A DNA stretch of 64,000 bases, taken from positions 797-64,796 of the forward strand of contig DATEPX010000399.1 in NCBI GenBank assembly GCA_035272945.1. The letters run 5' to 3'. The notes under the pieces were generated by a model. The model did no database searches. It was not told the DNA's origin and saw only the letters and a program-made list of their open reading frames with translations. The translations under genes were made by a program, and so were the position numbers. This DNA comes from Terriglobales bacterium. GTDB lineage: Bacteria > Acidobacteriota > Terriglobia > Terriglobales > Acidobacteriaceae. Positions 3,440 to 25,736 of the stretch are shown here, one piece after another (the first letter of the stretch is position 1; every line of letters begins with the position of its first letter).

Positions 3440-3623
3440 GGAATCTTGGGGTGAAGGTTCCCACGATGTCACTGCGCAGAGGCTCAGCGAGAATGCTCTC
3501 CGCGATGCCATGCTGTTCAAGAAGGCGATAATCCAAGACGCCGGCGAGAGCATCGCGGTTTATGAGCGCGAGCTTCGTTACAAAGTCTTCAATCCCTACA
3601 TGGAGCGTTTGACGGGCACCTGA
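3440..3623 (+). pseudogene. Stub of a PAS-domain sensor protein
   Basis: The frame ending at TGA 3621-3623 reads RLSENALRDAMLFKKAIIQDAGESIAVYERELRYKVFNPYMERLTGT*. This is the canonical start of a PAS fold (..I.v.d.dlRy...N..me.ltG). The rest of the PAS domain and any kinase domain are absent. Confidence 0.4.
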
Positions 3624-3647
3624 CGACTGGCAGCAGGCCGGTATCCG

Positions 3648-4295
3648 TCAGGCGCTCTTCAGCACGACACTCTCAAGGACGTTGGCGGCATCTTCAGCTT
3701 TGTCGCTGGCGGTTTCCAGAACCTCGAACAATTCCGTGAGCTTGATCAGGGTAATGGGATCGGGTTCCTGATCGAAGAGGCGCCCGATAGCGCGCCGACT
3801 GACGCTATCGGCCTCATCCTCCAGGCGGTTGATCTCCATGCAGTGGTCCAGCACATAGTCGTGCTTATTCAGGTTCTTCACCGCTTTGTGGAGCTCTTCG
3901 CACTGTAGCGTCACCAGTTCGGCCAGCTTCTCCGCGTCCGAAGGCACGCTCTGGATTTTATAGAGCACCAGGCGGTCGCCCGCCGAGTTCAGATAATCGA
4001 GCACGTCATCGATCGAGGAGGCAAGCTTGTGGATATCCTCGCGGTCAAAGGGCGTAATGAAGGTCTGGTTGAGTTTAGTGATGATGTTGTGGGTCATGAT
4101 GTCGCCGAGGTCCTCGATGTCCTTGAGTTTCTGCACGCGGACGGGGACATCGCGAAAGTCGCGCAGGATCTCGACCAATAGGCGCGCGCCCTGAATAAGA
4201 TTGTCGGACATCTCCCCAAACATCTCATAGAACTTGTTCTCGCGGGGGGCAAGATGAACCATCTGGCTCTTAAGCAAGGGAAGAAGTCGTGCCAT
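3648..4295 (-). CDS. DUF47 family protein (PhoU-like, TIGR00153)
   Basis: ENKFYEMFGEMSDNLIQGARLL...ITPFDREDIHKLASSIDDVLD...LEDEADSV... shows the typical DUF47 helical repeat pattern at full length (215 aa). Confidence 0.85.
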   Translation of the reverse strand: MARLLPLLKSQMVHLAPRENKFYEMFGEMSDNLIQGARLLVEILRDFRDVPVRVQKLKDIEDLGDIMTHNIITKLNQTFITPFDREDIHKLASSIDDVLDYLNSAGDRLVLYKIQSVPSDAEKLAELVTLQCEELHKAVKNLNKHDYVLDHCMEINRLEDEADSVSRRAIGRLFDQEPDPITLIKLTELFEVLETASDKAEDAANVLESVVLKSA

Positions 4296-4605: not shown

Positions 4606-7600
4606 TCAGAAACGTAATCTCGCGGATAGCTGCATTTCCCGTGGTACATGAGCATCGTTTGCACGCCCAAAGAATGCCGAGGTGAGCGTGCCGACATAAT
4701 TCGTGTAGTTAACATGGTTCATCACATTGAACGCGTCGGCTCGAAGCTCAATGTACCGTGACCCCTTGCTCCTTTCTCGTAATCTGAACATCTTTGCAAG
4801 GCGCAGGTCCGCGTTGGCGAAGCCGGGTCCGGCGCCACTATTGCGCCCAACATTTCCTGGCCCAGGGAGAATCAACCAGCGAACACTCGTCGCATTGATA
4901 GGAACGAAGCTGCCCCCGAACAACGCGTGTGCGCCGTCGTACAGCACGCCATTAGTCCCGCCGATGAAACGTCCGTCGACCGCAAAAGAGTTGAAGGGCG
5001 CCTTGGGATTTCCCAGGCTTGGGCGGTCGTTGAATACTGTATCGCGGTCATCGTCAAAGCCGGTCGTAATGTTGAAAGGAATGCCTGAGTAGAGGGAAAC
5101 AACACAACCTAAGTTGAAATCCCAGGGCAGCTTGAAGAGACCGGTAAAATTGAGCCGATGTCGCTGGTCGAAATCCGACCGCCCGCGCTCGCCTCTCAAG
5201 TCGTAATTGTTTGCCGGAAGAAAAGACAGCCCCGAGGTGTCATCGATCGAGTGGGAGAAGGTGTACTGCGACAGGAGCTGTAATCTGCCGCCCAGCGTGG
5301 TTCGCAGACCCAGAGTGAGACTGTGCGAATGAGAACTGCCTGAAGTCTCGAACTGATCAACATTCAGGAAATTCGGATCAGGACGCACACCAGTCGTCGG
5401 CAACGGCGCATTGACGTCGGGCATGCGGTACAGCTTCAGTCCGCGCAGCATGATGTACTCCGCCGTGAGGGTAGTCTTTCGGCCCAGTTTTCGCTCCACG
5501 TCCAAGCTGGCTTGGATGGCATAGGGAGTACGGAGGCGAGGATCAATCTGCAGCACACTGGGAGGTGAAGTGGAAACAAGACTAGAGGGGCTCCCCACTA
5601 GAGGGAAGCTTGGATTGCTAACGACAATCTGGTGCAAGTGGGAGCCGTTGAGAAGCAGGAACTGCTCTTCTAGAGTGACTGGCTGCCGTTGGTAGAAAGT
5701 GCCGATACCCGCGCGCAGGATGGTCTGACCATCCGGTGAGGTGGAGAGCGCGATGCGCGGTGCCAGATTTTTGTGGTCGTTGAGATTCGACTGGAGTTCG
5801 TGACGAAGCCCAACCAGCAAGCTCAGCTGCGGCCGAAGGCGGATTTCATCCTGAAAGAAATATGCGACTTCATATTGGGAGAATGCCACGCGCGGATCGC
5901 CCACGTTAACCGTATACTGAAGCGGTTTTTTGTTCACGAAGCTCGCCAGGTCAGAAAACGTGAATGTCCCACCGAAATTGGAAGAATCCGAATAGTCAAT
6001 TAGTCTTGATTTCAGAACTGCTCCGAACCGCAACGAATGCTTGCCATGCAAATAAGATGTAAGATCCTGGAACTCCACATCCTTCTCTAAGTTGCTCCGC
6101 GAGATCTGAGCGCCGCCGCTGCTGAATGAGCCGTTCACCAGGATCGCCGGCCTGCTGTTTGAGCTGCTAGCCAGTTTTGGCCGGTACTTGAAGTCGAAGC
6201 GGAACTCATTCAGGAAAGCCGAGGTAGGGGTCGCGATCTCCGATATTCGAAGTTCGTGGGCCTGATTATTCGAATTCCAGGCGCGCTCGGAGAGATCGAA
6301 TGCTCCGACCCCTTGGTTGGGCAGTCGAGTCTCGCTCCAGTTGTATCGCAGCGAGAGGATATGGAGTGGTGTAAGCCGAATTTCGGTTCGGCCCATCGAA
6401 TGAGCGGCGCGCCCCGGAATGGGAAAGGCTTCCGATAGCGGGCCGCTTGGTGTTACCGCTGCTACGAAGCTGTTGTTATTGTCTCTGAGGTAATCGCCGC
6501 CAACGAAAAAGGTCGCCTTGTCGGCGAAGAGCGGCCCATTGAGCTCGCCCGCGATCCACTCGCGCCGCCTGGGCGGGCGAACCGCGTCGTAGGGGTTGTG
6601 AGCATCCAGTCCAGCATCCCGGAAAGCGAATTCGAAACGCCGATGGAAGCGACGAAGGGAGCCACCTTTGGTCGTAACTTCGATGCGGCCCTTTCCTGGC
6701 CTGCCAAATTCGGCGGAATAGGGATTGCTGTTTACGGCGACAGTCTTGATACTCGAGCTCGGAACATCGAGCGTAGCGTCCTCTACCCCGTCAACTACGA
6801 TCTTAGTTCCCTCCGCATCATTGGCAGCGCTGTTCACAAAGAGGGAGGCAACCGCCAAGGGATTCTCGTTTTTCGCTGGCAGGCTCCGCAAGAAGTCTCC
6901 GTCCAGATAAACCGCACTCGCATTCTCTTCAGGAGATATGGGATCGTCGGACCGAGCCGACACAGTAATCTCCTCACTCACCTTAGCTGGCTGGAGGCGC
7001 ACTCGCTGGGCAGGCGTGGGTTGTGCACCAACCTCAAGGGGTAATTCCAGCGCCTTAAAGCCTTGTGTTTCTGCTCGCAAATGATATTTACCGGGTGCGA
7101 CTTCCCTAAATACGAAGTGGCCTGCCTCGTCCGTGACTGTGTTCAGTGCTCTGCCGGTCGCCTGCCCGACCAGTGTTACGTCCGCCTCCGGAATCACCGC
7201 GCCGCTCCGGTCTTCGACGAGTCCAGTAACAGTGGAAGTGGGCGGCGCCGGTGCCGTCCGAACAGACTCCCCGTCGCGGGGCTGCGCGGAGACACTCGGC
7301 GAGACAAGAACTTCGGTCGCCGTGTGGCTTGTCTCGTTGCGCTGATCAGCCGCCTGGAGAAGGCCGGAATTGTTTGCGGGAATAGCCCGCGGAGGGAGAA
7401 TCGAGTCATTGTTGCCGCCAGTGGCGCCGTCAACGACTCTAGTACCGGACGCAGCGGCCGGCCTGGGCGCGGTCGGAGCAGTCTGTTCCTCTGCGGATGG
7501 TGACATAGCTCTCGGCAACACAGAAACTTCGGTTGCCGGGTGGGCGGCCTCGCGACGTGGATCGGCAAGCTGGATCGAGCTGGTGTCGTTTGCCGCAACA

Positions 7601-8001
7601 GAGTACAGCCGAAGAATCCAGTTGTTGTCGCTGCCTGGAACGATCTCGTACGCAAGCGGACGCGCCAAGTCCACAACCACCCGTGTAGTAGGCGGAACTT
7701 GTCCGTTCATGCCCACACGCACCTCGTTCGCGCCGCCACTCTCCACGGTAAGGCGACGCTGGGGTGTTACCGCCACTGTCTTGGGTAGATCCATTATCAC
7801 TCGAGCAGGCGAATCCAGTCTGCTCAGGTGGGGTGTAACCGGGCCACTGAGCTGCAACTCAATCCTGAGCACTCCGGATTCTTGTCGAACCAGTACTCGG
7901 CGTAGTTCCACGGGTACCTTTATCGGCTGCTGAGCCGTGAGGACTCGTAGGAGCAAAGAAACGCAAGCAACGAGGAATAGCATTCGAATTGCTTTTTTCA
8001 T
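4606..8001 (-). CDS. TonB-dependent receptor-like outer-membrane protein with an N-terminal AMIN domain and a carboxypeptidase-regulatory-like domain
   Basis: The signal peptide is MKKAIRMLFLVACVSLLLRVLTAQ. An AMIN-like segment follows (PARVIMDLPKT...TTRVVVDLARPLAYEIV), then a Pro/Ala/Thr-rich linker. The CarboxypepD_reg domain reads VTGLVEDRSGAVIPEADVTLV...GHFVFREVAPGKYHLRAETQGF. A long beta-barrel ends in ...REMQLSARLRF with a terminal aromatic residue. GGAG lies upstream of the ATG. Confidence 0.85.
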   Translation of the reverse strand: MKKAIRMLFLVACVSLLLRVLTAQQPIKVPVELRRVLVRQESGVLRIELQLSGPVTPHLSRLDSPARVIMDLPKTVAVTPQRRLTVESGGANEVRVGMNGQVPPTTRVVVDLARPLAYEIVPGSDNNWILRLYSVAANDTSSIQLADPRREAAHPATEVSVLPRAMSPSAEEQTAPTAPRPAAASGTRVVDGATGGNNDSILPPRAIPANNSGLLQAADQRNETSHTATEVLVSPSVSAQPRDGESVRTAPAPPTSTVTGLVEDRSGAVIPEADVTLVGQATGRALNTVTDEAGHFVFREVAPGKYHLRAETQGFKALELPLEVGAQPTPAQRVRLQPAKVSEEITVSARSDDPISPEENASAVYLDGDFLRSLPAKNENPLAVASLFVNSAANDAEGTKIVVDGVEDATLDVPSSSIKTVAVNSNPYSAEFGRPGKGRIEVTTKGGSLRRFHRRFEFAFRDAGLDAHNPYDAVRPPRRREWIAGELNGPLFADKATFFVGGDYLRDNNNSFVAAVTPSGPLSEAFPIPGRAAHSMGRTEIRLTPLHILSLRYNWSETRLPNQGVGAFDLSERAWNSNNQAHELRISEIATPTSAFLNEFRFDFKYRPKLASSSNSRPAILVNGSFSSGGAQISRSNLEKDVEFQDLTSYLHGKHSLRFGAVLKSRLIDYSDSSNFGGTFTFSDLASFVNKKPLQYTVNVGDPRVAFSQYEVAYFFQDEIRLRPQLSLLVGLRHELQSNLNDHKNLAPRIALSTSPDGQTILRAGIGTFYQRQPVTLEEQFLLLNGSHLHQIVVSNPSFPLVGSPSSLVSTSPPSVLQIDPRLRTPYAIQASLDVERKLGRKTTLTAEYIMLRGLKLYRMPDVNAPLPTTGVRPDPNFLNVDQFETSGSSHSHSLTLGLRTTLGGRLQLLSQYTFSHSIDDTSGLSFLPANNYDLRGERGRSDFDQRHRLNFTGLFKLPWDFNLGCVVSLYSGIPFNITTGFDDDRDTVFNDRPSLGNPKAPFNSFAVDGRFIGGTNGVLYDGAHALFGGSFVPINATSVRWLILPGPGNVGRNSGAGPGFANADLRLAKMFRLRERSKGSRYIELRADAFNVMNHVNYTNYVGTLTSAFFGRANDAHVPREMQLSARLRF

Positions 8002-8064
8002 TAGCCGCTCCTCTCTACCGGTAAAAGCTCAAGAGCAAGCGCTAAGATATCCAGCGATGCCGAG

Positions 8065-9381
8065 CTACGCTTCTCCATCCTTTGCCGCCAAATTGGGCAG
8101 AACCGGGGCCCCAGATTTTTCTTGGTCTAGTCGTTGCCGGATAAGCACACGCTCTTCTCCCGGAGTGCGAGCGACAAGAAAGGCGTACACCTCGGTAGTA
8201 ATGGCGAGCAGAACTCGCACGCCCATCAAGGCGGCGATGCCCCACGTGCCCCACAAGAAACCCGCTAGAATCGGGGAGAGTACTCCCCCCGCATCCTCGC
8301 CCATGCTCATCCAGCTCATGGTGCGCGCGCGATTGCGCTTGTCGAAACCAGAGATCTCGGCCATCAGCGCGCCCCAGGCCGGGCGGAAAGCGGCCTTCCC
8401 CATGTCATCGGCTGTCTTCGCTACCGCGACCCCACCGAAACTGGGATTGACTACATAGAGGATCGAAGAGAGCGTGTTGGCAGCCGCCCTCACCGCCAAC
8501 ACAAGTTTGCGGCTGACATTGTCGGAGACCCAACCAAAGAGCGGGCCGGAGAAAATCGTGGCGAGCGTTGAAACTGTGTAGACGATTCCGGCCTGCGCTT
8601 TGCTCAAACCGGCGTATTCAGTCGCCAAGACGGGGAAGAGGCCGTTAAGCATTTCCGCAGTACTGGCGATTAAAAATCCCAGTCCAACGAACGGCAGGAC
8701 CTTCGGTCGGACCTGTGTTGTGCGGGCTGGGATTTCGCTTTCCTGAGCTGGGGCCACGTGAGATGGTTCCCGGCTGTCGTTCGCGCTGGTTGTGTCACTG
8801 TTCTCCTTGACATAGCGTGCGACGACCAGCAGTGGCAGGACCGAAAGGGCAAACGCTATGAAGAATACCAGTGGGTAATTGGCAGCAGTGACTGTCAGGA
8901 GGATACCGGCCACGGCCTTGCTTACCGAGCTCGCCACGCTCCTGGCCGTCTGGTACCACGCGTAAGCGGAAGCCACGGATTTTTCTCCCCCGTGCTCGGC
9001 AATGAGCGCATTCGCGGAAGGATCGCGCAGTGACATGGACAATCCATGCACACTCCGAATTGCGAAGAGCTCCCATGGCAGACTGGCGAAGCCCAGGGAC
9101 AGCGACACTAGGCTGCGCAGACTGATCGCAGCTAGGTAGGTACGTTTCAAACCAACGCGATCAGCTGCCCAACCCATCACCGGTTTTAATCCCACGGCTA
9201 CCGCGCTGTTGAGAGCCGCAAGCACGCCGACTTCGGTGAGACTCAGTCCCAGATGGCGAGCGTAGAGAGGCAGACTGAAGCTGATCAAGCCAAAGCTGAG
9301 GCGTGAGAGTAAACCTTCGCCCACGATTGCAATTAGCGAAAAATTGACGCGCCGTTTCATCTGAGTTCGTGAGCTATTCAT
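8065..9381 (-). CDS. MFS transporter
   Basis: The protein has ~12 hydrophobic segments. GWAADRVGLKRT matches MFS motif A (G...DR.GRK/R). It lies on the same strand as, and downstream of, the ATP-grasp cassette. Confidence 0.85.
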   Translation of the reverse strand: MNSSRTQMKRRVNFSLIAIVGEGLLSRLSFGLISFSLPLYARHLGLSLTEVGVLAALNSAVAVGLKPVMGWAADRVGLKRTYLAAISLRSLVSLSLGFASLPWELFAIRSVHGLSMSLRDPSANALIAEHGGEKSVASAYAWYQTARSVASSVSKAVAGILLTVTAANYPLVFFIAFALSVLPLLVVARYVKENSDTTSANDSREPSHVAPAQESEIPARTTQVRPKVLPFVGLGFLIASTAEMLNGLFPVLATEYAGLSKAQAGIVYTVSTLATIFSGPLFGWVSDNVSRKLVLAVRAAANTLSSILYVVNPSFGGVAVAKTADDMGKAAFRPAWGALMAEISGFDKRNRARTMSWMSMGEDAGGVLSPILAGFLWGTWGIAALMGVRVLLAITTEVYAFLVARTPGEERVLIRQRLDQEKSGAPVLPNLAAKDGEA

Positions 9382-9573
9382 TGGCAGGGTGGATCGAGTG
9401 CGTTAACGCGCATTTCTCGACAGGGGCAGAATGCCTCCCGAGCTGGGCTCGGTCGAACTTTGCTCCTACGCAGTAGGGTGCTGAGCGGCCAAGACGAGGC
9501 TTCGGCGCGCCCCGGAGTTCCCACAGCAACTTGTGCCGAAGGCATCCTTCTATCTGCAGAGTTATCTCGGGCG

Positions 9574-10422
9574 TCATGAGACCCTCGCGGGACTGGCTTC
9601 TGTTGCAACGACGATCCCCGGCAGGTCGCACACTCCCTCCGCGCAACGCTGCACGTAATCGGCGACCACCTCGGACGCACCCTTTACGCCTTTAAAGCCG
9701 GGAAAATAATTGACGTCGATCACCTTGGGGCCACTCTCCGTTTCGATGAGATCCACTCCGTAGAGGCCGAGCCCGAAAGCGGCGCCACAGCTGAGGCCGA
9801 TTCTGCGGAGTTCTGTGGTCACCGGAACGGGGCGCCCTGGGCGGGCAAAGCTGTCACCAGAAAATGGCTTCGCCACAGCGAAAACTTCTTCGCCGGCAAT
9901 GTACAGGCGCAGGTCTTCGCCGCTTCCGGGCAAATACTCTTGAACCAGCACAGGCGACTGGGGAAAAGGCAGAGTGGCGAGCTCCGCCTGATTGCGAACC
10001 ACATGAACGCCCTCCCCCCGCCAGCCCATATAAGGCTTGACAATAATCGGGGCTTCATTGAGCAGATTGCCCAACAGGGTAAAGTCGCTGGTCACCCAGC
10101 AACGCGGAGCCGGGATAGCCGCTGCCGCGAGAACCTGCGACGCAATGATTTTGTTGCGTGCTGCGTAACACCCCGGGTACGGATTTAAAAGACGTGCTCC
10201 CTGGCGGTGTAGAACTCCGGCCAAGCTGAGCGAAAGCTCGGTATAGGACTTCAATAAGTAAAGATCGACCTTAGGAAACGGCCGATCGGGACGCAACAAA
10301 GTCTCTTCCGCGATGCCGCATGCCACTTTCACTCCGCGCTGCCGCAGGATTTCGCAGACCTCTAGGACAAGTTGGCTGGGAACATCCGGTCTCCGGCGCG
10401 CCAGCATGAAATAAAGTTTCAA
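9574..10422 (-). CDS. ATP-grasp enzyme, paralog C (RimK / ITPK1-like fold)
   Basis: Motifs: DLYLLKS, IIVKPYMGWRGEGVHVV, LYGVDLIE...VIDVNYFPGFKGV. The start is TTG at 10422, preceded by GAGGAGGAG. Its N-terminus MKLYFMLARR aligns with paralog B (MKIGMVMLRH). Confidence 0.85.
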   Translation of the reverse strand: MKLYFMLARRRPDVPSQLVLEVCEILRQRGVKVACGIAEETLLRPDRPFPKVDLYLLKSYTELSLSLAGVLHRQGARLLNPYPGCYAARNKIIASQVLAAAAIPAPRCWVTSDFTLLGNLLNEAPIIVKPYMGWRGEGVHVVRNQAELATLPFPQSPVLVQEYLPGSGEDLRLYIAGEEVFAVAKPFSGDSFARPGRPVPVTTELRRIGLSCGAAFGLGLYGVDLIETESGPKVIDVNYFPGFKGVKGASEVVADYVQRCAEGVCDLPGIVVATEASPARVS

Positions 10423-10464
10423 TCGCTGCTCCTCCTCAGAATTCTCGGAAATATGCTCGGGCTG

Positions 10465-11661
10465 CTAACCCCAGGCCCACATCCGGCGCTCGAGGCTCAC
10501 CAGTTGATTGCCTGGTTGCCAGCCTGGTGCCAGTTGTCCCCAGCTTTTGAGAACAGAAGACGCAAGTTCACTTTTCTGATCTAGTCCGCAGACTTTCTCC
10601 AAAACGGCCCCTGCCCCGGAATTTCTGATCAGGGTATTCAGCTCCGTGCACGAGGGATCTTCCGGGTCGCAGAAGCAGAGGGCGGCGGCAGTCGCCAACA
10701 CCAGGCTTTCCGGAACGACACCGGCTCTTTCCGCAAGCCTTGCGGCGCCGACCAGGCGTTCCTTCGGACCAAGCTTCCGGCGTGGATCGCGCCCCACTCG
10801 CTGGATCGGATCACTCAGCAACGCGTTTTCGAAGCGGGCCATGATTTCTTCCAGTTCTTTGTCGCCGTTGCAGGTCTCCCATCCAAACTTGGCTTCCAAC
10901 CCGCGCTGCCCTTCCCTCATAGCTGCCAGGACTGCGGCGCGGATTTCGGGATCGCGGACCGCACTGTGGATATAGTGGTATCCCTTCAAGGATCCCAAGT
11001 ACGCCGCAGTCGCGTGCCCGGCGCTGAAGACATAAAGCTTGCGTAACGCCCAGGCGGTGAAGTGTTTCGTAGTCACCATGCCCTTGATTTTCGGAAATGG
11101 CTTCTTCAGGGAGGTGGCGTCAACGACAAAACTGCTCGGTGTATCGCCGATGAATTCGAGAGGCTCATCGCTTGCGATAGAACCCCGTTTCTGCGTAACT
11201 GCACGCTTTACCAGAGCTCCCGAGAAACCGTGATCTTCTGCCATGTTGGCGCCGTGGACTGCATTCCGTACCAGCCGGCGCAGCCACGACCCAGCATTGA
11301 TGAGATTTTCGAAGGCGAGGACGTTGGCCGGAGACCGCCGCCGTTCAAGCCCCGCAGCCAGAATTGGGGCAACCAAAGCTAAGTTCTGTGGACCCACGGC
11401 GGTTGCAATCACGTTGGCTTCGGCAATAGCGCCACTTACAGCCGATGTGTCTTGAGTCCATAGAGCTCGCACTGGCCCGATTACCTGCTCGCGCTGCTCG
11501 GTTGTGCTAGTCAACTTCACGCGATAGCGCCCGACGCGGTTTAGGTGTCGGACCACCTCGGGTTTGCGGGCCACAAACGTCAGGTCGTAGCCGGACGAGT
11601 GCAGCAGTTCGCCCGCGAATCCGCAGCCGATGCGTCCCGGTCCAATCACGACGGCTTTCAT
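10465..11661 (-). CDS. Mannitol-1-phosphate 5-dehydrogenase-like (MtlD family) polyol-phosphate dehydrogenase
   Basis: MKAVVIGPGRIGCGFAGELL compares with E. coli MtlD [20 protein letters not shown]. Further matches are ATAVGP, AFENL, RKLYVFSAGHATAAYLG (MtlD: RKLFTLNTGHAITAYLG) and RFEN...DPIQRVGRDPRRKL. I chose ATG 11661 because it has a GGAGG SD and overlaps the stop of the upstream gene as ATGA. The 467-aa track ORF is an over-extension. Confidence 0.85.
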   Translation of the reverse strand: MKAVVIGPGRIGCGFAGELLHSSGYDLTFVARKPEVVRHLNRVGRYRVKLTSTTEQREQVIGPVRALWTQDTSAVSGAIAEANVIATAVGPQNLALVAPILAAGLERRRSPANVLAFENLINAGSWLRRLVRNAVHGANMAEDHGFSGALVKRAVTQKRGSIASDEPLEFIGDTPSSFVVDATSLKKPFPKIKGMVTTKHFTAWALRKLYVFSAGHATAAYLGSLKGYHYIHSAVRDPEIRAAVLAAMREGQRGLEAKFGWETCNGDKELEEIMARFENALLSDPIQRVGRDPRRKLGPKERLVGAARLAERAGVVPESLVLATAAALCFCDPEDPSCTELNTLIRNSGAGAVLEKVCGLDQKSELASSVLKSWGQLAPGWQPGNQLVSLERRMWAWG

Positions 11662-12503
11662 GCTGCGACCTCCTTCGGCATCGGAAGCACGGCCGAGTGC
11701 CCCTCCAAGACCCGTTGCAACGCGGCGTAGATGTAGTCCGCGATGCGCAGCGCCGCATCGGGCACACCTTTGAATCCAGGGAAACTCGCGATATCGACGA
11801 CGTAGGGCTTGCCCTCGCTTATGATCACGTCCAGCCCGTACAACTCGATCCCTAGGGCTTGACCGCAACGCAACGCCACTGTCTTCAATTCTGGTGTAAT
11901 CGTGAAAGGCTCTCCTAGCTTTTCAGCATAGGTCTTGGCGGGCCAAGCTCGAAGCACGCCGAACAGTTGTCCACCCACGCAATAGATCTTGCGATCAACG
12001 CCCTCAGGTTTGTGATAACGCTGGGCAAACACCGGACCACAGTCGGCAGTGATGTCATCGAGTTCATCGGCATCCCACACCACATGTACGCCGCGGCCCT
12101 GTGAACCACGGTAGGGTTTGACGACAAGCGGCCCGGCGTCGAGCAGGGTGGCGAACAGTTTGGGATTCGAGGTGACATACGTGTTGGGACAGGGAACGCC
12201 CGCAGCCAGAAGTATGCGCGTCGCCGCCACCTTGTCTCGCAGAGCGGCCGCGACCGGGTATGGGTTGAGAATGTTGGCCCCCGTCGCATGCAAGGCCGCA
12301 GACAGGCTCAGAGCCAGCTCGCTACCCGACTTCAGCACGTACAGATCGTGCTCCGGTTTTACATTGGCAAGATCCGTGACTCTTTCTTCCGGATAGATCA
12401 CCTCCACAGTAACTCCCCAGTCGACCAGCAGACGCACGACCTCCGGCATGATCGGGCTCTTGCGCGTTGGAGGATGACGAAGCATTACCATGCCAATTTT
12501 CAT
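11658..12503 (-). CDS. ATP-grasp enzyme, paralog B (RimK / ITPK1-like fold)
   Basis: Motifs: DLYVLKS, LVVKPYRGSQGRGVHVV, LYGLDVIISEGKPYVVDIASFPGFKGV. ATGA overlaps join it to both neighbouring genes. Confidence 0.85.
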   Translation of the reverse strand: MKIGMVMLRHPPTRKSPIMPEVVRLLVDWGVTVEVIYPEERVTDLANVKPEHDLYVLKSGSELALSLSAALHATGANILNPYPVAAALRDKVAATRILLAAGVPCPNTYVTSNPKLFATLLDAGPLVVKPYRGSQGRGVHVVWDADELDDITADCGPVFAQRYHKPEGVDRKIYCVGGQLFGVLRAWPAKTYAEKLGEPFTITPELKTVALRCGQALGIELYGLDVIISEGKPYVVDIASFPGFKGVPDAALRIADYIYAALQRVLEGHSAVLPMPKEVAA

Positions 12504-13348
12504 GCCAAGCCTCTCTGTCCGATTTTGCGCGATACGTAGTCCGCCAACTTTTCACTGGCCTCCGGTACCGCCGAATAGTTGGGGAAATCGTTGACTTCAA
12601 TTACCACCAGACCGGTTGGTGTCTCAATGCAATCCACTCCATACAGTTCAAGCCCAAAGAGCTCGCCGCAGTGGCGCGCGAGACTGCGAAGCTGAGCAGT
12701 AGTCTGGACTCTCTCGGCCACGCCGTTCGCCGCTCCCTTGCTGATCGGTGCGGAAGGTTTCCGCACCACCCATACCTCTTCTCCAATGCAGTACAGCTTG
12801 ACGTCGTAGCCGTCGTTCGGTTCGAACTTTTGGGCCAGCACCACGCTATCGGGCCACGGCATGCTCTCCAGTTCCGCTGCATCCTGCACTACGCGCAGCC
12901 CGTTCCCGTTGTCGCCAAAGACTGGCTTAAGAATGAGTGGGAAATTCGGCCTCGGCAGCCTGCGCGCGAGCTCGCGCGGAGATCCAAATCGCGTGACTGG
13001 CGTCGGAATCCCGGCCATCTTCAAGGCAACCGCCATGTCGGCCTTGTTATGGACCCTTGCAATTGCCGCTCGGGTATTGAGGGTGGGAACACCCCGGGCT
13101 TCGGCCCACGACAGCAAGGAGAGAACTGACCAGCTGCGACCCCGCGCCACCACTACGTCAAAGCCTTGCAGCCAGGAGTCGTTGCCCGGTTCGTGGCAGC
13201 CTGCCTCCGGATCCACAACGACTGTGGTGCAACCGATACTGCTCAGCGCTGCGATCATCCCGCGCGGCTGAGCCTGCGCAAGATAACGCCTTTCTGCAAT
13301 TACACCGATGCACTTTGCGCGACGAGGACGAGAACCCTGATCAGCCAC
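12500..13348 (-). CDS. ATP-grasp enzyme, paralog A (more divergent)
   Basis: Motifs: LILKPVFGDNGNGLRVV, VKLYCIGEEVWVV, LYGVDCIETPTGLVVIEVNDFPNY. The start is GTG at 13348 and is uncertain. Confidence 0.8.
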   Translation of the reverse strand: MADQGSRPRRAKCIGVIAERRYLAQAQPRGMIAALSSIGCTTVVVDPEAGCHEPGNDSWLQGFDVVVARGRSWSVLSLLSWAEARGVPTLNTRAAIARVHNKADMAVALKMAGIPTPVTRFGSPRELARRLPRPNFPLILKPVFGDNGNGLRVVQDAAELESMPWPDSVVLAQKFEPNDGYDVKLYCIGEEVWVVRKPSAPISKGAANGVAERVQTTAQLRSLARHCGELFGLELYGVDCIETPTGLVVIEVNDFPNYSAVPEASEKLADYVSRKIGQRGLA

Positions 13349-14428
13349 GACACTTGACCCCGTTGAGAGTTCGCTTTCGGCGGCCTGGAGACGTTTCCGA
13401 ATTCTGATGCTTTGTCTGCGATCACTTCACAGATCTTCTCCACCTCGCCCCGACTCGTTTAGACGGCCATTCTGCCTTGCATACTTTGGTGGCGTGTACT
13501 CACAGCTCCGCTCCCTCAGGCACAGCTCTCGACTGTGGTGCAGAGTCATCTCCTCGTTGTGACCCAGGAATTTTGAAGACTCACCCAAAAATGGATCCTG
13601 GAGCTTACCCGGCGAAGGGGGGATGGACATTGGAGTCCCGGTGCGGGCGCAGCCAGATCCAGTTGGCAAACCTACTTCACACTAGAACTTCAGCATACAA
13701 CCACGCTGAATGCAATTCTCCCAGGCGGTTAAGGCAAATGACTAATTCAATCGAATTAGTACGACCGGACGAGGACTTTCACCGATTTTTCGTTTTGCTG
13801 TAACAAATCGTTAACAAAAGAGGTGTGCAATGAATACATGACTAGACGAATAAATGGGGCTCAAAAACTCCGCCACCACCAGGGCTGCAAGTGCGGGTGT
13901 GGAAAAAGCCTCCTGGCTTGCGCTTGCTCGCAATGCTGCGTGACGCAGACCAGTGCCGGTATCTTCCTTCTATGCGATCGGGCCCGTGTGCTCAAGTATT
14001 TCGAGAACGCGCTTAGAGCAGACCAACTTCTACGAGTGCCAGACCTCCTTGAGGATTGCACGACACCGGTGCTCCGGGTTGCCATCAAGCGTCGCGATGC
14101 TGCTGCCCGCAAACAAGGAACTGCCGGCCGACAACACGTCTTCGACCAGAGCAGCGCTGCCTGCTCTCGCGAACCATCGCCAGCGTGGGTGAGGCAATCG
14201 CGAAAGAGGGAAAGAAAGTCCTACATTTCACGAGCGCAGAAACCCGCAGCGCACAATCTGCAACAAAGCTCACGCCACCACAGCTGATTTTTTCAATGCG
14301 AGCGGGCACAGTCATGATGGGTGCACTAAGAAGAAGCGTAGGGGCTGAGTGCTGGTGCGGTTGCTTTCAGCAGAGGAACCGGGCATCAGGGCGCCGTGCC
14401 TTGGTGCGAGTCGTACACGTATCATGCC

Positions 14429-15292
14429 CTATTCCCGGATGAACTTTCCGTTGTCCCGAGGGGCTGCTTCGACTCCAAGATACGGTGAGGACAACACCAT
14501 GCGCAGGACCTTGCCGACAATTGCGGAGCGGCTTGCTACAGCCATCTTAATCATGACCAGCCGCAGAAAGGCCTTAACGGTGTTCGGGCTGACCCTCATG
14601 CGGTCCGCCATCTCTCTGCTGCTGAGTCCTTGCAGCAGCAGTGCGAGGGTTTCCTGCTCTCGTTGTGTCAGGCCGAACTTCTGCGAGACTTGGGACAATG
14701 CCAGCGATGCAGACATCCCTCGCTCCAACACGATCAGCATCATCGCTTCCTTCGAGGCTCGTCCTTCGTTCAGAAGAAATGCGCGGCAAAAATATTTTCG
14801 CCTCCCCGACTTGCACTGAATGACGGGAGGAGCCCAATTCGCATTTGACAGCGAGCCCTCAGCACGCAGAAGACTGCGCCGGACTTTCTTGTCAAATTCG
14901 GCCGCGAGGCTTTGTGGCGACCCCGGGTAGGTTAGAATCGTGATCGCTTCGTGGTTGGCCGAAACAGGCCTTAACGAAGCATCAGCCAGCACAAAGCCCA
15001 GTGTGTGTGCCCTGGTGACGAGCTGAGGAAGATTACTACCGCTTTCTTCGGGAACTAACCCGCGCTCACCAGATATTGGACCAATCACTGCCACCCGGTC
15101 GCGATGGCGCTCCGCGACTTGGGGGATTGGGTCCTTTTGCGCTGGGCGCGGCAGCGGGTCTCGTAATGTTGTCATATTCTCGGCGGGCCCGCTTGTCCCT
15201 CCGCCACAGGCGGGAAAGTAACGTTGCCGGGGGCACAGGGGTTCGAAGCGGCTAGCTCTCTCACCCCTTTTTAGCGGCGAGTACTGTCCCAC
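14429..15292 (-). CDS. LuxR-family transcriptional regulator (acidobacterial type with an N-terminal sensory domain)
   Basis: The C-terminal HTH reads LTQREQETLALLLQGLSSREMADRMRVSPNTVKAFLRLVMIKMAVASRSAIVGKVL. The true start may be ATG 15175 (MTTLRDPLP...). Confidence 0.8.
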   Translation of the reverse strand: MGQYSPLKRGERASRFEPLCPRQRYFPACGGGTSGPAENMTTLRDPLPRPAQKDPIPQVAERHRDRVAVIGPISGERGLVPEESGSNLPQLVTRAHTLGFVLADASLRPVSANHEAITILTYPGSPQSLAAEFDKKVRRSLLRAEGSLSNANWAPPVIQCKSGRRKYFCRAFLLNEGRASKEAMMLIVLERGMSASLALSQVSQKFGLTQREQETLALLLQGLSSREMADRMRVSPNTVKAFLRLVMIKMAVASRSAIVGKVLRMVLSSPYLGVEAAPRDNGKFIRE

Positions 15293-15483
15293 TATGCAGA
15301 GGGGCCTCTAAAAATCAGTTTAAATGGGGGGTGTCGTCCAGTTGCCTATGTAAAACGCCCGAGGACGCCTGCTTTTCCACTCCGAATGTGAATCTCGGAA
15401 GATAGAATAAGGACTCTCTCCGTATCTGGCCAAGTCGTGGGCACTATAGGATTCGGGCAAATTCCAAGTCAATATCAGCGTAG

Positions 15484-15500
15484 AAAAATTAACAATTTTT
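15484..15500. promoter_or_regulatory. 17-bp inverted repeat AAAAATT-AAC-AATTTTT in the divergent LuxR/porin intergenic region
   Basis: The two 7-bp arms are perfect and separated by 3 nt. The repeat lies in an AT-rich stretch between two divergently oriented genes. Confidence 0.25.
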
Positions 15501-15965
15501 ACAAGACGTCTTAGGACAGGTTTTGTGCCCTACCTGATTCATCTCTGGGACTCTGGAAGAACAGGAATAGATCGCACGGGGAACCTGTTGACAACCTGCC
15601 CGAAAGGTCGCAAGCTTTGCACGGATGTTGGCCAGGAGGCCGGAAAGAACTGTCGACGGTTCATGTCTTCGCCCGCTCTGGCTTTGTGCTGTGCGTCGTC
15701 GTTGATCGTGACGCGATGCCGCCGCGCCCCCGCGAGAAACGTGGCACAGTTACATCCATGGCCGCGGAAATGACGGCCTGCTCGGACGATTGTTCCTCCC
15801 CCGCAAGAGGGTCACAAAGGATTCCTCATTCTGCCTGCAATCTGAAGAACCAGTCGTAGGAATCCTCGACCCTAAGGCCACACGCGCTGCCACTTGTGTT
15901 TCGTGCGCCGTCAATGGCGAGTCGTTTGGGCCCATTTGTGACGGCTATGCTTTGAGGAGACCACA

Positions 15966-17309
15966 ATGAGATTCCACATTCTCGGGACCGAAACCTCTCC
16001 CATTTCCCGCACCGACTGGGCGATCGTAAAGCGAATTTTTGCAGTGCTGCTTGGGATTCTGGTGAGCACCACCATTCTCGATGGGCAACAAACCGAAACC
16101 GGCACTGACGCGGATACGCAAACCATAAAGGCGCTTATGCGGAGAATCGAGCAATTGGAGGCCGCAGATAAACAACTGCAGGCCAGGGTCGAACAACTCG
16201 AAAAAGTCCAGCAGGCGCTTGCCCAGCCTTCCATAACACAGTTGCCAACTCATCTCAGCGTTTCCTCTGAAGCGCCCGCCAACGAGCAGAGCGCAGCGCT
16301 GGAGCCGGAGAAAAGCGATGCTGACGAGACTCTGCTCAACATACGTGGTTTTGGCGATTACAGTTTTCATGGTGACACCCAGAAAGGGACGTCGACCTCA
16401 TTTACCTTTGGACAGATTGATCTCTTCATCACGTCGCACCTCTCTGACCGGTTTAGGTTCCTGACCGACCTGGTCTTTGAGAGGGGTAGAGGCAACAGCT
16501 ACGAGGAGGATCTTGAACGCGTGCTCCTCGAATACAGGTATAACGATCATTTAAAACTGGCGGTGGGCCGCTACCATACCGCGATCGGTTATTACAACCT
16601 TGCCTTCCGCCACAGCGGTTGGTTCCAGACTGCTACGGGGCGCCCTTTCCTGTTCCTGTTTGAAGACGAAGGAGGGATTCTGCCTACTCACAATGTGGGA
16701 GTGTCAGCATCTGGGCTAATACCCTCAGGGAACGTGGGGCTACACTACATTGCCGAGATCGGAAACGGACGTGCCTCGAGGCCGGGGTTTCAGTCAGTGC
16801 AAAATTTTGTGGATGAGAACCACCATAAATCCCTCAACCTGGCCCTTTTCGCGCGACCGGATGCAGTTCCGGGATTGCAGGTCGGCTTCTCTGTTTACCG
16901 TGATGTCCTTGCTCCGGCCGAGTTGGCTCGAATCGGCGAGACCATTCTTGCTGGCTACGCCGCCCTCGCCCGCCCCAGATTCGAATGGCTCAACGAGGCC
17001 TTGGTGATTCGTCACGCGCCGCGGGGACTTCCTCACGTCTTCGATACGCCCGGTTTCTATACTCAGATTTCGCGTCGGTTTGGCTCGTACCGTCCCTACC
17101 TTCGTTACCAGTACGTGAACGCCTCTGACGACGAGCCAGTTTTCCTCTCTGTCTACAACACACCGGTCGGCCTGCAGCATGGCCCCTCAGTAGGTCTGCG
17201 TTACGATGCTACCGAGTCGGTGGCGATTAAGCTGCAGTACGATTACACGGCTTTGCGGCACCAGCAAGCGATCAGTGGACTGGCGCTCCAACTGGGATTT
17301 GCCTTCTAG
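15966..17309 (+). CDS. Outer-membrane beta-barrel porin (phosphate-selective porin O/P-like) with an N-terminal coiled coil
   Basis: A GAGGAGA SD precedes the ATG. The coiled coil reads IKALMRRIEQLEAADKQLQARVEQLEKVQQ. It is followed by alternating amphipathic strands (FGQIDLFITSHLSDRFRFLTDLVFE..., LKLAVGRYHTAIGYYN). The C-terminus ...LALQLGFAF ends in Phe. Confidence 0.7.
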   Translation: MRFHILGTETSPISRTDWAIVKRIFAVLLGILVSTTILDGQQTETGTDADTQTIKALMRRIEQLEAADKQLQARVEQLEKVQQALAQPSITQLPTHLSVSSEAPANEQSAALEPEKSDADETLLNIRGFGDYSFHGDTQKGTSTSFTFGQIDLFITSHLSDRFRFLTDLVFERGRGNSYEEDLERVLLEYRYNDHLKLAVGRYHTAIGYYNLAFRHSGWFQTATGRPFLFLFEDEGGILPTHNVGVSASGLIPSGNVGLHYIAEIGNGRASRPGFQSVQNFVDENHHKSLNLALFARPDAVPGLQVGFSVYRDVLAPAELARIGETILAGYAALARPRFEWLNEALVIRHAPRGLPHVFDTPGFYTQISRRFGSYRPYLRYQYVNASDDEPVFLSVYNTPVGLQHGPSVGLRYDATESVAIKLQYDYTALRHQQAISGLALQLGFAF

Positions 17310-17322
17310 AGGGTTACAAGCT

Positions 17323-25667: not shown

Positions 25668-25736
25668 CCGCGCTGCTTAGCCAGTCGGCAAGAAATTTCC
25701 ACCAGCGAGTCTTCAGAAAATGTGAGGATTAGAGAC

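Follow-up and report, generated by a model that had tools for sequence, protein, structure and literature searches.

A conserved five-gene cassette of three ATP-grasp paralogs, an MtlD-like dehydrogenase, and an MFS transporter, with a possible role in making a multiply phosphorylated sugar alcohol

The locus lies in a 64,000-nucleotide stretch of contig DATEPX010000399.1 from a soil acidobacterium of the Terriglobales, referred to here as the window. The open reading frame listing of the window contains five co-directional genes on the minus strand, at the coordinates given in the initial annotation: three ATP-grasp proteins (A, B, and C), an MtlD-like dehydrogenase (D), and an MFS transporter. 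From upstream to downstream, these genes and their neighbors are:

14429-15292, LuxR/GerE gene, located by domain search
12500..13348, minus strand, ATP-grasp A (GTG start, 282 aa)
11658..12503, minus strand, ATP-grasp B (281 aa)
10465..11661, minus strand, D, MtlD-like NAD-dependent polyol-phosphate dehydrogenase (398 aa from the ATG at 11661)
9574..10422, minus strand, ATP-grasp C (TTG start, 282 aa)
9382..9573, minus strand, non-coding gap between C and MFS (192 nt)
8065..9381, minus strand, MFS transporter (438 aa)
4606..8001, minus strand, outer-membrane β-barrel (1131 aa)

The start of B overlaps the stop of A, and the start of D the stop of B, in both cases as ATGA; the TAG stop of D is followed by 42 nt containing the Shine-Dalgarno sequence GAGGAGGAG, a 6-nt spacer, and the TTG start of C. 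The sequence agrees exactly with the earlier description of these junctions. The GTG start of A at 13348 is supported by conserved residues that lie upstream of NCBI's shorter 252-aa model. The barrel gene, which starts 63 nt past the MFS stop with its own Shine-Dalgarno sequence, GAGAGGAG, is a member of the cassette. The LuxR regulator reported upstream is present but lies outside the conserved unit, and no LuxR gene was found near the cassette in the neighborhoods of any other related locus.

Conservation was assessed in 77 loci that contain the B family, taken from one genome per species across many bacterial phyla. A and B occur together in 71 of these, C in 65, D in 63, and an MFS homolog, usually after C, in 66; all five genes are present in 53, and A-B-D-C-MFS is the commonest order. 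The adjacency of these genes is far beyond chance. Some lineages have a fourth ATP-grasp paralog, B′, and fusion proteins join a full MtlD to an ATP-grasp domain (P0242), an ATP-grasp domain to an IMPase (P0246), and two ATP-grasp domains to each other (P0248). Chance adjacency of unrelated genes, refuted by the 53/77 loci from many phyla, or mis-assembly of the region has a negligible probability, because the ATGA overlaps, the fusions, the uniform base composition of the window, and the identical proteins on up to 45 independent contigs all speak against it; no evidence for either was found. Across the window and the related loci, the cassette has no conserved amino-acid, amine, or carrier-protein gene and no conserved precursor- or target-peptide ORF. 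No published account of the cluster was found in the searched literature, which, together with the databases, gave no match to a characterized pathway of this composition, in line with the earlier statement that none is known.

D, which is annotated by NCBI as hypothetical, belongs to the MtlD family as proposed: it contains both Pfam domains, Mannitol_dh (81 bits) and Mannitol_dh_C (95 bits), and matches Shigella MtlD (3H2Z) with an E value of 4e-59. The catalytic Lys and His, Asn119, the three phosphate-binding arginines, and Arg280 and Lys288 of Staphylococcus aureus mannitol-1-phosphate dehydrogenase (SaM1PDH) are retained, and the segment QRVGRDPRRKLGPKERL has the equivalents of its R280, R283, R287, K288, and R294, which points to a phosphorylated polyol or ketose as the substrate. 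D differs from MtlD in scoring below the equivalog cut-off (267 versus 356 bits), in its position between ATP-grasp genes with no PTS or mannitol catabolic context, and in the oxyanion-hole Asn205, which is Ser in most members of the D family. Within the K-x4-N-x2-H motif of the family the Lys and His are invariant, and the Asn is replaced by Ser in 45 of 63 members.

A, B, and C each contain a RimK-type ATP-grasp domain (Pfam), and pairwise identities of 32% (A/B), 38% (A/C), and 40% (B/C), with E values of 4e-32 to 5e-65, bear out their description as paralogs. Judged by their sequences, they form a clade of their own, outside RimK and ITPK1, that is well conserved across phyla (48–78% identity for B; homologs of C at 55–68%). 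A has a canonical E-x-N Mg motif, a distinctive and fully conserved N-terminal E-x-R-Y..Q-x-Q-P motif, and R-G-R-S, and C has a canonical D-x-N Mg motif; in B the Mg-binding Asn is replaced by Ala in the window, and only 48% of family members have it.

The three proteins had been thought closer to ITPK1 than to RimK, a view that holds only for the last ~65 residues of A, B, and B′ and only in comparison with human ITPK1 (35–46 bits versus 25–32 bits for RimK). In the same segment human ITPK1 and RimK tie for C, and potato ITPK1 falls below RimK. Over the whole length, the profiles of the cassette families score higher against RimK (65–89 bits) than against ITPK1 (44–55 bits), and the best sequence matches are RimK, LysX, and MptN. 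The predicted folds are also slightly nearer to ArgX/LysX/RimK (Foldseek TM 0.72–0.80) than to ITPK1 (0.68–0.71): the AF2 model of B (pLDDT 90.3) gives 0.77–0.80 with ArgX/LysX and 0.68–0.71 with ITPK1, and that of C (pLDDT 91.6) gives 0.79 with ArgX/LysX, 0.73–0.78 with RimK, and 0.69–0.70 with ITPK1. Against Ins134_P3_kin (PF05770; Pfam cut-off 23 bits), A, B, C, and B′ all score 32–36 bits, whereas genuine Escherichia coli RimK gives no match to it at E ≤ 0.01. The match is confined to the last 55–60 of the 201 model positions (in A, the final 57 aa score 35.5 bits, beside 43 bits for Pfam RimK), and the ITPK1 N-terminal domain was not detected by Pfam in A, B, or C. When ITPK1 positions were mapped with a MAFFT alignment, and K59 through motif spacing, the inositol-phosphate contacts K59, H162, H167, K199, R212, and G301 aligned with K58, R132, R137, K172, R/K185, and G243. 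The pocket positions of B are very basic, and RimK has Glu and Ile at positions 132 and 137; the glycine-rich loop of B has Arg in place of RimK Glu144 and Ile149. Several of the ITPK1-like basic residues are basic in RimK too.

The whole-length matches and the folds (TM 0.77–0.80 for the best) are what one would expect of a ligase cascade, the main alternative for the cassette, in which A, B, and C would be RimK/LysX-type carboxylate-amine (or carboxylate-hydroxyl) ligases that attach amino acids such as glutamate one after another, either to a polyol phosphate or to the product of a sister enzyme. The outcome would be a peptide- or ester-decorated polyol phosphate, for example a metallophore or compatible solute, exported by the MFS protein and taken up through the barrel. 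To our knowledge, every characterized member of the ArgX/LysX/RimK branch is a glutamate ligase, and the cassette proteins share with the RimK/LysX/ArgX/MptN/CofF ligases the compact three-domain build of ~280 aa and the ATP-binding Lys, Gln, and acidic Mg ligands. We nevertheless regard such a cascade as rather doubtful, because all three proteins miss every curated RimK/LysX cut-off and lie far under those for RimK, LysX, MptN, and CofF (79–96 versus 143, with A at 96 bits for rimK_fam, and 60–84 versus 276), and because they give no match to Rimk_N or GSH-S_ATP, both of which genuine RimK matches. The RimK/GshB motif F-R-S-N-L-H-R-G-G is shortened or eroded in the cassette proteins, with erosion in A and C; B has [RK]-T-Y-x-E-K-L-G, in a region of ambiguous alignment where a partial motif is possible. 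The cassette also has no conserved amine or carboxylate supply gene, ribosomal protein S6, LysW-type carrier, or cofactor context, and its partners are polyol-phosphate genes and phosphatase genes, the latter of which a ligase cascade leaves unexplained.

The MFS protein (MFS_1, 152 bits) has as its best NCBIfam matches PgtP and the D-galactonate transporter, at about 73 bits and far below cut-off, and DgoT as its nearest solved structure (29 bits); these weak best matches are anion/organophosphate-type MFS families. The barrel has AMIN, CarboxypepD_reg, and OMP_b-brl_4 domains (Pfam) and is of the TonB-dependent-receptor-like type, with no plug domain detected. Its homologs adjoin the cassette in six related loci (L001, L003, L007, L010, L012, and L084), and Alginate_exp porins take its place in L056 and L020. 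In L007, a 93%-identical relative, the gene calls show a 4-nt overlap at both C/MFS and MFS/OMP, and C is called at 322 aa, compared with ~280 for the family. Small siderophore loci typically combine biosynthetic genes, an MFS transporter, and an outer-membrane receptor, a resemblance that would suit a ligase cascade as well. Enterobactin (ent/fep/fes), legiobactin (lbt), Francisella fsl, and vibrioferrin (pvs, with the ATP-grasp protein PvsA) loci have a synthetase, MFS exporter, TonB-dependent receptor, and hydrolase; in the cassette, cytoplasmic biosynthetic enzymes are likewise co-transcribed with an MFS gene and a large barrel, and relatives have an extracytoplasmic hydrolase that could break down the product. 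The cassette differs from them in having no NIS, NRPS, or typical siderophore chemistry and in having phosphatases rather than esterases as partners.

The recurrent accessory enzymes of related loci are all phosphatases. (i) An IMPase-family gene (PF00459) lies between C and MFS in L001, L003, L011, and L012; the family was tabulated by blastp in 7 loci and confirmed by Pfam in L001 and L003. tblastn with IMPase proteins found no such gene or remnant in the window, including the 192-nt gap. (ii) A HAD hydrolase occurs in L020. (iii) A secreted β-propeller phytase, co-directional with the cassette and in most cases with a signal peptide, forms a homology cluster in 18/77 loci, four members of which match PF02333 with 194–364 bits; 8 loci encode a second phytase-like propeller, and 5 carry DUF3616. 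No phytase is present in the window or in most loci of its type.

These partners could also belong to a route that salvages or degrades inositol or polyol polyphosphates from the environment, in which a secreted phytase would partly dephosphorylate soil phytate, the barrel and MFS protein would import the lower phosphates, the cytoplasmic ATP-grasp enzymes would, as ITPK1 is able to do, transfer phosphates reversibly or work as re-phosphorylating "isomerases", and IMPase or HAD would complete dephosphorylation before D oxidized the polyol. Barrels of the TonB-dependent type are, as far as we know, importers only, and the overlap of the MFS and OMP gene calls in L007 and the secreted, co-directional phytase agree with such a route, as does the phosphatase activity reported for ITPK1 (PMC6900528). 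Salvage nonetheless appears quite unlikely: D belongs with the mannitol-1-phosphate-type enzymes, which act on acyclic hexitol phosphates, and not with the inositol dehydrogenases; its translational coupling between ATP-grasp genes and its fusion in P0242 fit scaffold synthesis; ATP-consuming enzymes are unusual for scavenging; and most loci, the window included, have no phytase.

Both options first offered for the cassette, a polyol/inositol-phosphate multi-kinase pathway and a ligase cascade on a polyol, with the MFS protein as carrier of substrate or product, are viable, and the context favors the former because the recurrent partners are all phosphatases, fusion proteins exist, and D retains the phosphate-binding Arg trio. 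We tentatively propose, with somewhat less than an even chance of being right, that the cassette encodes a pathway to a small, phytate-like molecule, namely a sugar alcohol bearing several phosphates. D, by its strong family evidence, would reduce a ketose phosphate, of which fructose-6-phosphate is the likeliest, giving a mannitol-1-phosphate-type hexitol phosphate. In the second step, the weakest of the scheme, A, B, and C (and B′ in some lineages) might each phosphorylate a further hydroxyl with ATP, as the ATP-grasp kinases ITPK1 and PPIP5K do, even though A, B, C, and B′ form a separate clade nearer to the LysX/RimK fold. Tight translational coupling and the fusions suggest that these enzymes act together, possibly as a hetero-oligomer, of which B, often without one Mg ligand yet strongly conserved, may form the core. 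The MFS protein would then carry the anionic product, intact or with some of its phosphates removed, across the inner membrane, and passage through the outer membrane would fall to the barrel or, in other phyla, to an AlgE-like porin. In relatives that have the genes, which are absent from the window, an IMPase-family enzyme, HAD phosphatase, and secreted phytase may trim or recycle the compound.

The comparison for such a pathway is the ITPK1-based "soluble" inositol phosphate pathway of eukaryotes and Lokiarchaeum, the latter having four ITPK1 paralogs (LcIKA-D), two pairs of which flank inositol-phosphate synthase genes (PMC6900528), and these we count as a precedent for kinases here. Common to both are paralogous ATP-grasp enzymes beside an enzyme converting sugar phosphate to polyol phosphate, the C-terminal Mg/substrate motif (LYG.D.I...V.D.N.FPG.KGV in the cassette, LFGIDII...VIDINAFPGYEGV in ITPK1), basic residues aligned with K59, H167, K199, and R212, and a link to IMPase and phytase; pairing with an IMPase-family phosphatase in some loci is also a point of likeness between D and mannitol-1-phosphate dehydrogenase. 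In contrast, the cassette proteins are shorter (280 versus 320–340 aa), match only the last ~55 PF05770 positions without the ITPK1 N-domain, and are slightly nearer to LysX/RimK in fold, an MtlD-type dehydrogenase for an acyclic hexitol phosphate takes the place of myo-inositol-phosphate synthase as the scaffold enzyme, and an MFS and an outer-membrane component are added.

We count for phosphorylation by A, B, and C the conserved order, translational coupling, D residues, phosphatase partners, fusions, Ins134_P3_kin matches, C-terminal likeness to ITPK1, basic residues at ITPK1 contact positions, and the lack of a conserved amino-acid, amine, carrier-protein, or precursor-peptide gene. Against it we count the whole-length RimK scores, LysX-like folds, partial Ins134_P3_kin match, basic residues common to RimK, possible partial RimK/GshB motif in B, and absence of phytase from the window and most loci of its type, together with the searched literature, which describes no polyphosphorylated mannitol of natural origin, and the highly charged product, an unusual cargo for an MFS transporter.

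The combination of biosynthesis, MFS transporter, outer-membrane receptor, and dedicated hydrolase resembles siderophore loci, and the product of the proposed sugar-alcohol phosphate pathway may accordingly serve the bacterium as a secreted chelator, a phosphate-mobilizing agent, or a phosphorus store.

All five minus-strand open reading frames described for the cassette (8065-13348) in the initial annotation were recovered by ORF calling, and a further gene on the same strand, which had gone unnoticed there, encodes a large outer-membrane barrel (OMP). From the upstream end, the genes are as follows.

12500-13348, minus strand, ATP-grasp A, GTG start, 282 residues (ORF call)
11658-12503, minus strand, ATP-grasp B, 281 residues (ORF call)
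10465-11661, minus strand, MtlD-like dehydrogenase D, 398 residues counted from the ATG at 11661
9574-10422, minus strand, ATP-grasp C, TTG start, 282 residues (ORF call)
8065-9381, minus strand, MFS transporter, 438 residues (ORF call)
4606-8001, minus strand, OMP, 1131 residues, with AMIN, CarboxypepD_reg and OMP_b-brl_4 domains (Pfam)

The A/B and B/D junctions are the ATGA overlaps originally reported (GGCATGAAA and GCAGCATGAAAG, respectively), and the TAG stop of D is followed by 42 nt in which GAGGAGGAG lies six bases before the TTG of C. Pfam places a RimK-type ATP-grasp domain in each ATP-grasp protein, the two mannitol dehydrogenase domains in D, and MFS_1 in the transporter. The three ATP-grasp proteins are paralogues, as had been proposed, with 32-40% mutual identity and E values down to 5e-65. 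NCBI annotates A and C as "ATP-grasp domain-containing protein" but both B and D as "hypothetical protein", and its 252-residue model of A omits an N-terminal E-x-R-Y..Q-x-Q-P motif; the strong conservation of this motif across the family makes GTG 13348 the better start. The OMP gene begins 63 nt past the MFS stop and is preceded by GAGAGGAG. The 192-nt gap between C and MFS is non-coding, with no credible ORF, and no IMPase remnant was found in it, nor an IMPase anywhere in the window. Homologues of IMPase (PF00459), beta-propeller phytase (PF02333), phytase-like proteins, and DUF3616 are absent from the 64 kb and were seen only in related loci. A search for riboswitches and RNA leaders (cmscan, 7500-16000, E≤1) returned only a spurious miRNA match, promoter and terminator scans gave counts at or under shuffled expectation, and no conserved small ORF lies upstream of A. 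A graspetide or RiPP precursor was considered for the 1.08 kb upstream of A and rejected, as blastn and tblastx matched only 46 nt of this region, in L007, a relative with 93% identity.

Database relatives at E≤1e-5 number 1793 for B and 909 for C. A genome scan with one genome per species gave 160 stretches encoding a relative, from which 77 distinct loci (given L numbers here) were retained, with ORFs called in all of them and assigned by blastp to the window proteins. A and B are present in 71 of the 77 loci, C in 65, D in 63, and MFS in 66; all five genes occur in 53, and many of the loci short of the full set are truncated contigs. The commonest gene order across the 77 is A-B-D-C-MFS. 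Conservation had been set beforehand as the check on chance adjacency, and the retention of order and gene set in this survey decisively excludes that explanation. The identity of B is 65-78% among 20 aligned homologues with Actinomycetota, Limnocylindrales, and Anaerolineae labels and 48-72% over the 77 loci, and on these alignments B is unusually well conserved. The hosts comprise Acidobacteriota (Candidatus Angelobacter, Blastocatellia, Chloracidobacterium), Chloroflexota, Actinomycetota, Myxococcota (Anaeromyxobacter), Betaproteobacteria (Usitatibacter), Alphaproteobacteria, Elusimicrobiota, Candidatus Eisenbacteria, and Clostridia/Heliobacteria. The window itself derives from a metagenome-assembled genome of the Terriglobales (Acidobacteriota). 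One actinomycetotal carrier, Arthrobacter sp. GCM10027362 with locus L078, is an isolate; the Chloracidobacterium, Usitatibacter, Anaeromyxobacter, and Heliomicrobium carriers are metagenome-assembled genomes from genera that have cultured members.

The initial annotation had weighed RimK and ITPK1 as the family of A, B, and C, and HMM scoring makes them members of neither. Against NCBIfam rimK_fam (TIGR00768) A, B, and C score 96, 79, and 81 bits, respectively (cut-off 143.4); all three give 60-84 bits with the LysX model (cut-off 275.6), 34-42 bits with the S6-glutamate ligase model (cut-off 331), and far less than the cut-offs of the MptN and CofF models. The clan-level RimK model PF08443 is passed at 43-52 bits over the whole ATP-grasp domain (cut-off 21), and PF05770 (Ins134_P3_kin) gives 32-36 bits (cut-off 23) that cover only model positions ~140-199 of 201. 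Pfam reported no Rimk_N, LysX_preATP_grasp, or GSH-S_ATP domain in the three window proteins and no match to the ITPK1 N-terminal domain PF17927. As controls, Escherichia coli RimK scores 284 bits with PF08443, 138 with Rimk_N, and 62 with GSH-S_ATP and has no match to Ins134_P3_kin at E≤0.01, and human ITPK1 scores 298 bits with PF05770, 124 with PF17927, and only 18 with RimK. Read with these controls, the scores of A, B, C, and B' (a fourth ATP-grasp paralogue found in some lineages) indicate a clade of their own with links to each of the two families.

Profiles of the families were constructed from the loci. Over the whole length, RimK scores 65-89 bits and human ITPK1 44-55; in the central domain RimK is ahead for B, B', and C and about equal to human ITPK1 for A. 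Over the C-terminal 65 residues the profiles of A, B, and B' give 35-46 bits for human ITPK1 versus 25-32 for RimK, and the C profile scores the two about equally; potato ITPK1 falls under RimK in this segment. AlphaFold models of C and B (pLDDT 91.6 and 90.3) were compared with the PDB by Foldseek, and the best matches are ArgX (3vpb) and LysX (3vpd) at TM 0.77-0.80, then RimK at 0.72-0.78; ITPK1 is matched significantly and ranks after these (TM 0.68-0.71, E 1e-15 to 1e-17), and PPIP5K and graspetide ligases rank under ITPK1. The proposal that the proteins are nearer to ITPK1 than to RimK thus stands for the C-terminal 65 residues of A, B, and B' against human ITPK1 and fails over the whole length; in fold the proteins are slightly nearer to ArgX/LysX/RimK. 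The better overall similarity in sequence and fold is what favors the main rival explanation, a RimK/LysX-like ligase cascade. We consider this reading somewhat unlikely; it leaves unexplained both the phosphatase genes that accompany the cassette in related loci and the absence of an amino-acid, carrier, or peptide gene. No LysW-type carrier protein was found among the conserved neighbour families.

Among the inositol-phosphate contacts of human ITPK1, H167, K199, and R212 are the most conserved and K18, K59, H162, and G301 are variable (PMC6900528). We aligned 254 family sequences with E. coli RimK and human ITPK1 (100% identical to 2ODT). Arg137, at the H167 position, is present in 80% of B and 73% of A sequences and is Ala or Glu in C. 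Lys172 (K199 position) is conserved in 75-100% and Arg/Lys185 (R212 position) in 94-100%, Arg132 (H162 position) is found in 52% of B and 80% of B', and Gly243 aligns with G301. ITPK1 was misaligned by MAFFT around K59, and Lys/Arg58 was therefore assigned to this contact from the spacing of motifs; the alignment of the loop is also uncertain. At positions 132 and 137 RimK carries Glu144 and Ile149, but it shares the K199, K59, and G301 equivalents. Further conserved basic residues in B are Arg9, Arg14, Arg89, Lys91, Arg162, Lys195, and Lys245. The F-R-S-N-L-H-R-G-G motif of RimK and glutathione synthetase, whose Arg stabilises the acyl phosphate, falls in a region that is 4-7 residues shorter in A, B, and C. 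There B can be aligned as [RK]-T-Y-x-E-K-L-G, with gap placement differing between HMMER and MAFFT; C can be aligned, not convincingly, as S-F-x-R-P-G; and A has no convincing counterpart. Several contact residues are common to both RimK and ITPK1, and two alignments of the key loop can be made, so that the residues are an ambiguous guide to kinase versus ligase; on balance they favor a substrate that is polyanionic and carries phosphate. A (E-x-N) and C (D-x-N) have the canonical magnesium ligands. In B of the window, residue 239 is Ala in place of the Asn of (D/E)-x-N, which is kept in only 48% of the B family; because this Asn is often lost and B is nevertheless strongly conserved, B may serve as a scaffold or a regulatory subunit and not be fully catalytic.

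The dehydrogenase had been called unmistakably MtlD family. Both long-chain domains are present (Mannitol_dh, 81 bits; Mannitol_dh_C, 95 bits; Pfam), and D aligns end to end with Shigella MtlD (3H2Z, residues 1-373, E 4e-59), but its best MtlD equivalog, NF002652, gives 267 bits, under the cut-off of 356. In SaM1PDH of Staphylococcus aureus the catalytic triad is Asn119, Lys200, and Asn205, the substrate residues are His208, Arg280, and Lys288, and phosphate is bound by Arg283, Arg287, and Arg294 (PMC6623548). In the D family the Lys and His are invariant (63 of 63) and the E-N sequence is conserved; the Asn205 equivalent is Ser in 45 of 63 members, D of the window included, and Asn in 17. The phosphate-binding Arg motif of D, QRVGRDPRRKLGPKERL, aligns with ERVGRQPLRKLSAGDRL of Shigella MtlD, and the equivalents of Arg280, Arg283, Arg287, Lys288, and Arg294 are all retained in the window protein and in the family consensus "RVGRDP.RKL...dRL". 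The retention of these sites suggests that the substrate is a phosphorylated ketose/polyol pair, probably of the fructose-6-phosphate/mannitol-1-phosphate type, possibly with altered stereochemistry.

The transporter matches PF07690 in two stretches over both six-helix halves (152 bits) and passes no subfamily cut-off. Its best matches, all weak, are PgtP (organophosphate:Pi antiporter type) and the D-galactonate transporter (anion:cation symporter type), and the nearest solved structure is DgoT; these matches are compatible with an anionic cargo. Pfam reported no plug domain in the OMP barrel. A second CarboxypepD_reg/OMP_b-brl_4 barrel of ~1130 residues, at 25722-29102 on the plus strand, is paralogous to the barrel at 4606-8001 on the minus strand, and of the two it is the cassette-adjacent barrel that carries the N-terminal AMIN domain. 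AMIN-domain TonB-dependent transporters have been described as exclusively cyanobacterial (preprint 10.64898/2026.07.30.741596).

Most of the functional information comes from the variants of the cassette. In four close relatives of the window (L001, L003, L011, and L012) an IMPase-family gene (PF00459) lies between C and MFS, spanning 10933-11787 in L001, and the OMP barrel is divergent and upstream of the cassette. L007 lacks the IMPase, as does the window; in its gene calls C/MFS and MFS/OMP overlap by 4 nt each, and C is called at 322 residues versus ~280 for the family. In Blastocatellia, other Acidobacteriota, and Heliobacteria-type loci the order is A-B-C-MFS-B', and D is encoded ~3 kb upstream, on the opposite strand and behind a ~750-residue FHA-TPR-receiver protein. 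A single homology cluster of beta-propeller phytases supplies the next gene in 18 loci, for the most part co-directional and directly after B'; of four members examined, three score 194, 237, and 364 bits with PF02333, and L064 is assigned by cluster membership only. Most of these phytases start with a signal peptide, in general ahead of a linker rich in Lys and Asp, and are thus extracytoplasmic. A second NHL/"phytase-like" propeller follows in 8 loci and DUF3616 in 5. The betaproteobacterial locus L020 has the order A-B-D-C-MFS-phytase-HAD phosphatase-Alginate_exp porin, with the phytase at 13607-15559, and in the alphaproteobacterial L056 an Alginate_exp porin follows MFS. Across these variants (IMPase, phytase, and HAD) all recurrent accessory enzymes are phosphatases, and an outer-membrane channel accompanies every diderm cassette.

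A profile search of 1.84 billion representatives gave 444 clusters at E≤1e-30 and several fusions: P0242 (696 residues) joins a complete MtlD-like enzyme to an ATP-grasp, P0246 (540 residues) an ATP-grasp to an IMPase domain (177 bits), and P0248 two ATP-grasps, and receiver-ATP-grasp proteins were also found. Salvage of environmental phytate would be in keeping with an importer-type barrel and a secreted phytase, but we regard it as improbable; an MtlD-type enzyme wedged between ATP-grasp genes, and sometimes fused to an ATP-grasp, argues against it.

Several other features recur around the cassette. The FHA-TPR-receiver gene (L083 5662-8064, L064 5600-8044, L059 14354-16654, and about 20 further loci) adjoins D and is co-directional with it whenever D opposes the A-B-C strand, and its product is probably the regulator of that variant. 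In phytases including L084 13035-14411, L075 12935-14389, and L068 13647-15077 the linker after the signal peptide is a long low-complexity stretch, Lys-rich and then Asp-rich (…KKKDKDKKKEK…DDDDDDDD), and the best NCBIfam match of the linker phytases, under cut-off, is "myxosortase-dependent phytase-like phosphatase". A few genes downstream of the cassette, L083 14521-17652 encodes a ~1000-residue fusion of FHA, Ser/Thr protein kinase, and MFS, an unusual architecture that was defined by a Pfam scan of L083; ~1000-residue ORFs recognized by MFS similarity occupy the same position in L035, L045, L051, L065, L069, L075, L076, L079, L082, and L084. A CHAT-TPR protein (~960 residues, one homology cluster) lies near the cassette in seven loci of Chloroflexota and Actinomycetota types (L005, L008, L025, L027, L028, L053, and L057), with a subtilisin-type S8 peptidase nearby in all but L057; an S8 peptidase also follows MFS in L001.

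The LuxR gene noted near the cassette is real (14429-15292) and has no counterpart beside the cassette in other loci. LuxR, PhoU_div, the 447-residue ORF at 15966, and the PBP-like ORF were rejected as cassette members, having no homologue in any related locus; the PhoU_div gene (3648-4295) and the ORFs of 15966-17850 likewise lack counterparts near the cassette elsewhere. PhoU_div genes are usually paired with a PiT-type phosphate transporter gene. The PhoU_div/DUF47 gene of the window, on the minus strand 310 nt downstream of the OMP gene, has no such partner, and 3033-3648 contains no long ORF. A 90-residue Cys/His-rich ORF at 2761-3033 on the plus strand (…CEDCVKLGDTWVHLRLCLTCGHVGCCDSSKNKHATKHFHETSHP…), resembling a UBP-type zinc finger, overlaps a 3-hydroxyisobutyrate-dehydrogenase-like gene (1785-2771) at the end of the latter. 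The strand opposite to the cassette carries, about 4.5 kb upstream of it, a histidine kinase (4HB_MCP, HisKA, HATPase; 17866-19371, plus strand) and an OmpR-type response regulator (19759-20487, plus strand); the 447-residue ORF, which has no Pfam match, and a weak PBP_like_2 protein precede the kinase.

The best-supported model for the cassette, which we favor tentatively and at somewhat less than even confidence, is a polyol-phosphate pathway. D would convert a ketose phosphate to a hexitol phosphate, which A, B, and C, and B' where present, would phosphorylate further with ATP; MFS and the outer-membrane channel would transport the anionic product or a breakdown form, and IMPase, HAD, and secreted phytase would trim or recycle the product. 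The gene set with its coupling and conservation, the phosphatase partners, the fusions, and the M1PDH phosphate site retained in D are observed, whereas we infer the chemistry of the ATP-grasp steps, which polyol is used, and in which direction transport runs. Lokiarchaeum offers a precedent of closely similar organisation: four ITPK1 paralogues, as two pairs, flank inositol-phosphate synthase genes and sustain the synthesis of InsP6 in yeast (PMC6900528). Full-text literature searches found no description of the gene combination of the cassette, in agreement with the initial annotation, which knew of no characterised pathway of this composition; outside eukaryotes, the reports of ITPK that they found were confined to Asgard archaea, and mannitol polyphosphates of natural origin did not turn up. 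The parts come from known superfamilies; neither the ATP-grasp clade nor a pathway so composed has been described.

Polyols that are highly phosphorylated, phytate among them, account for a large part of the organic phosphorus in soil and, to our knowledge, are regarded as products of eukaryotes, with the Asgard exception. It is conceivable, though in this full form we think it unlikely, that soil and sediment bacteria of many phyla produce a hexitol (or cyclitol) polyphosphate resembling phytate by a bacterial ATP-grasp kinase clade unrelated by descent to the eukaryotic IPK/IPMK routes, that they secrete it through MFS and an outer-membrane channel to chelate metals or mobilise phosphate or keep it as a phosphorus store, and that they recover it with a dedicated TonB-type barrel and the cluster phytase. 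The named and possibly cultivable carriers, of which the Arthrobacter isolate is confirmed, make the function of the cassette testable. If the proteins are ligases instead, the product would still be an undescribed polyol-phosphate conjugate, in about 160 species of many phyla. If the polyphosphate proposal is true, it would provide a microbial source for part of the unidentified or stereoisomeric phosphomonoester pool of soils, a self-made substrate for beta-propeller phytases, a novel type of secreted chelator or of compound for handling phosphorus, and a new functional ATP-grasp branch between the RimK/LysX ligases and the ITPK1 kinases.
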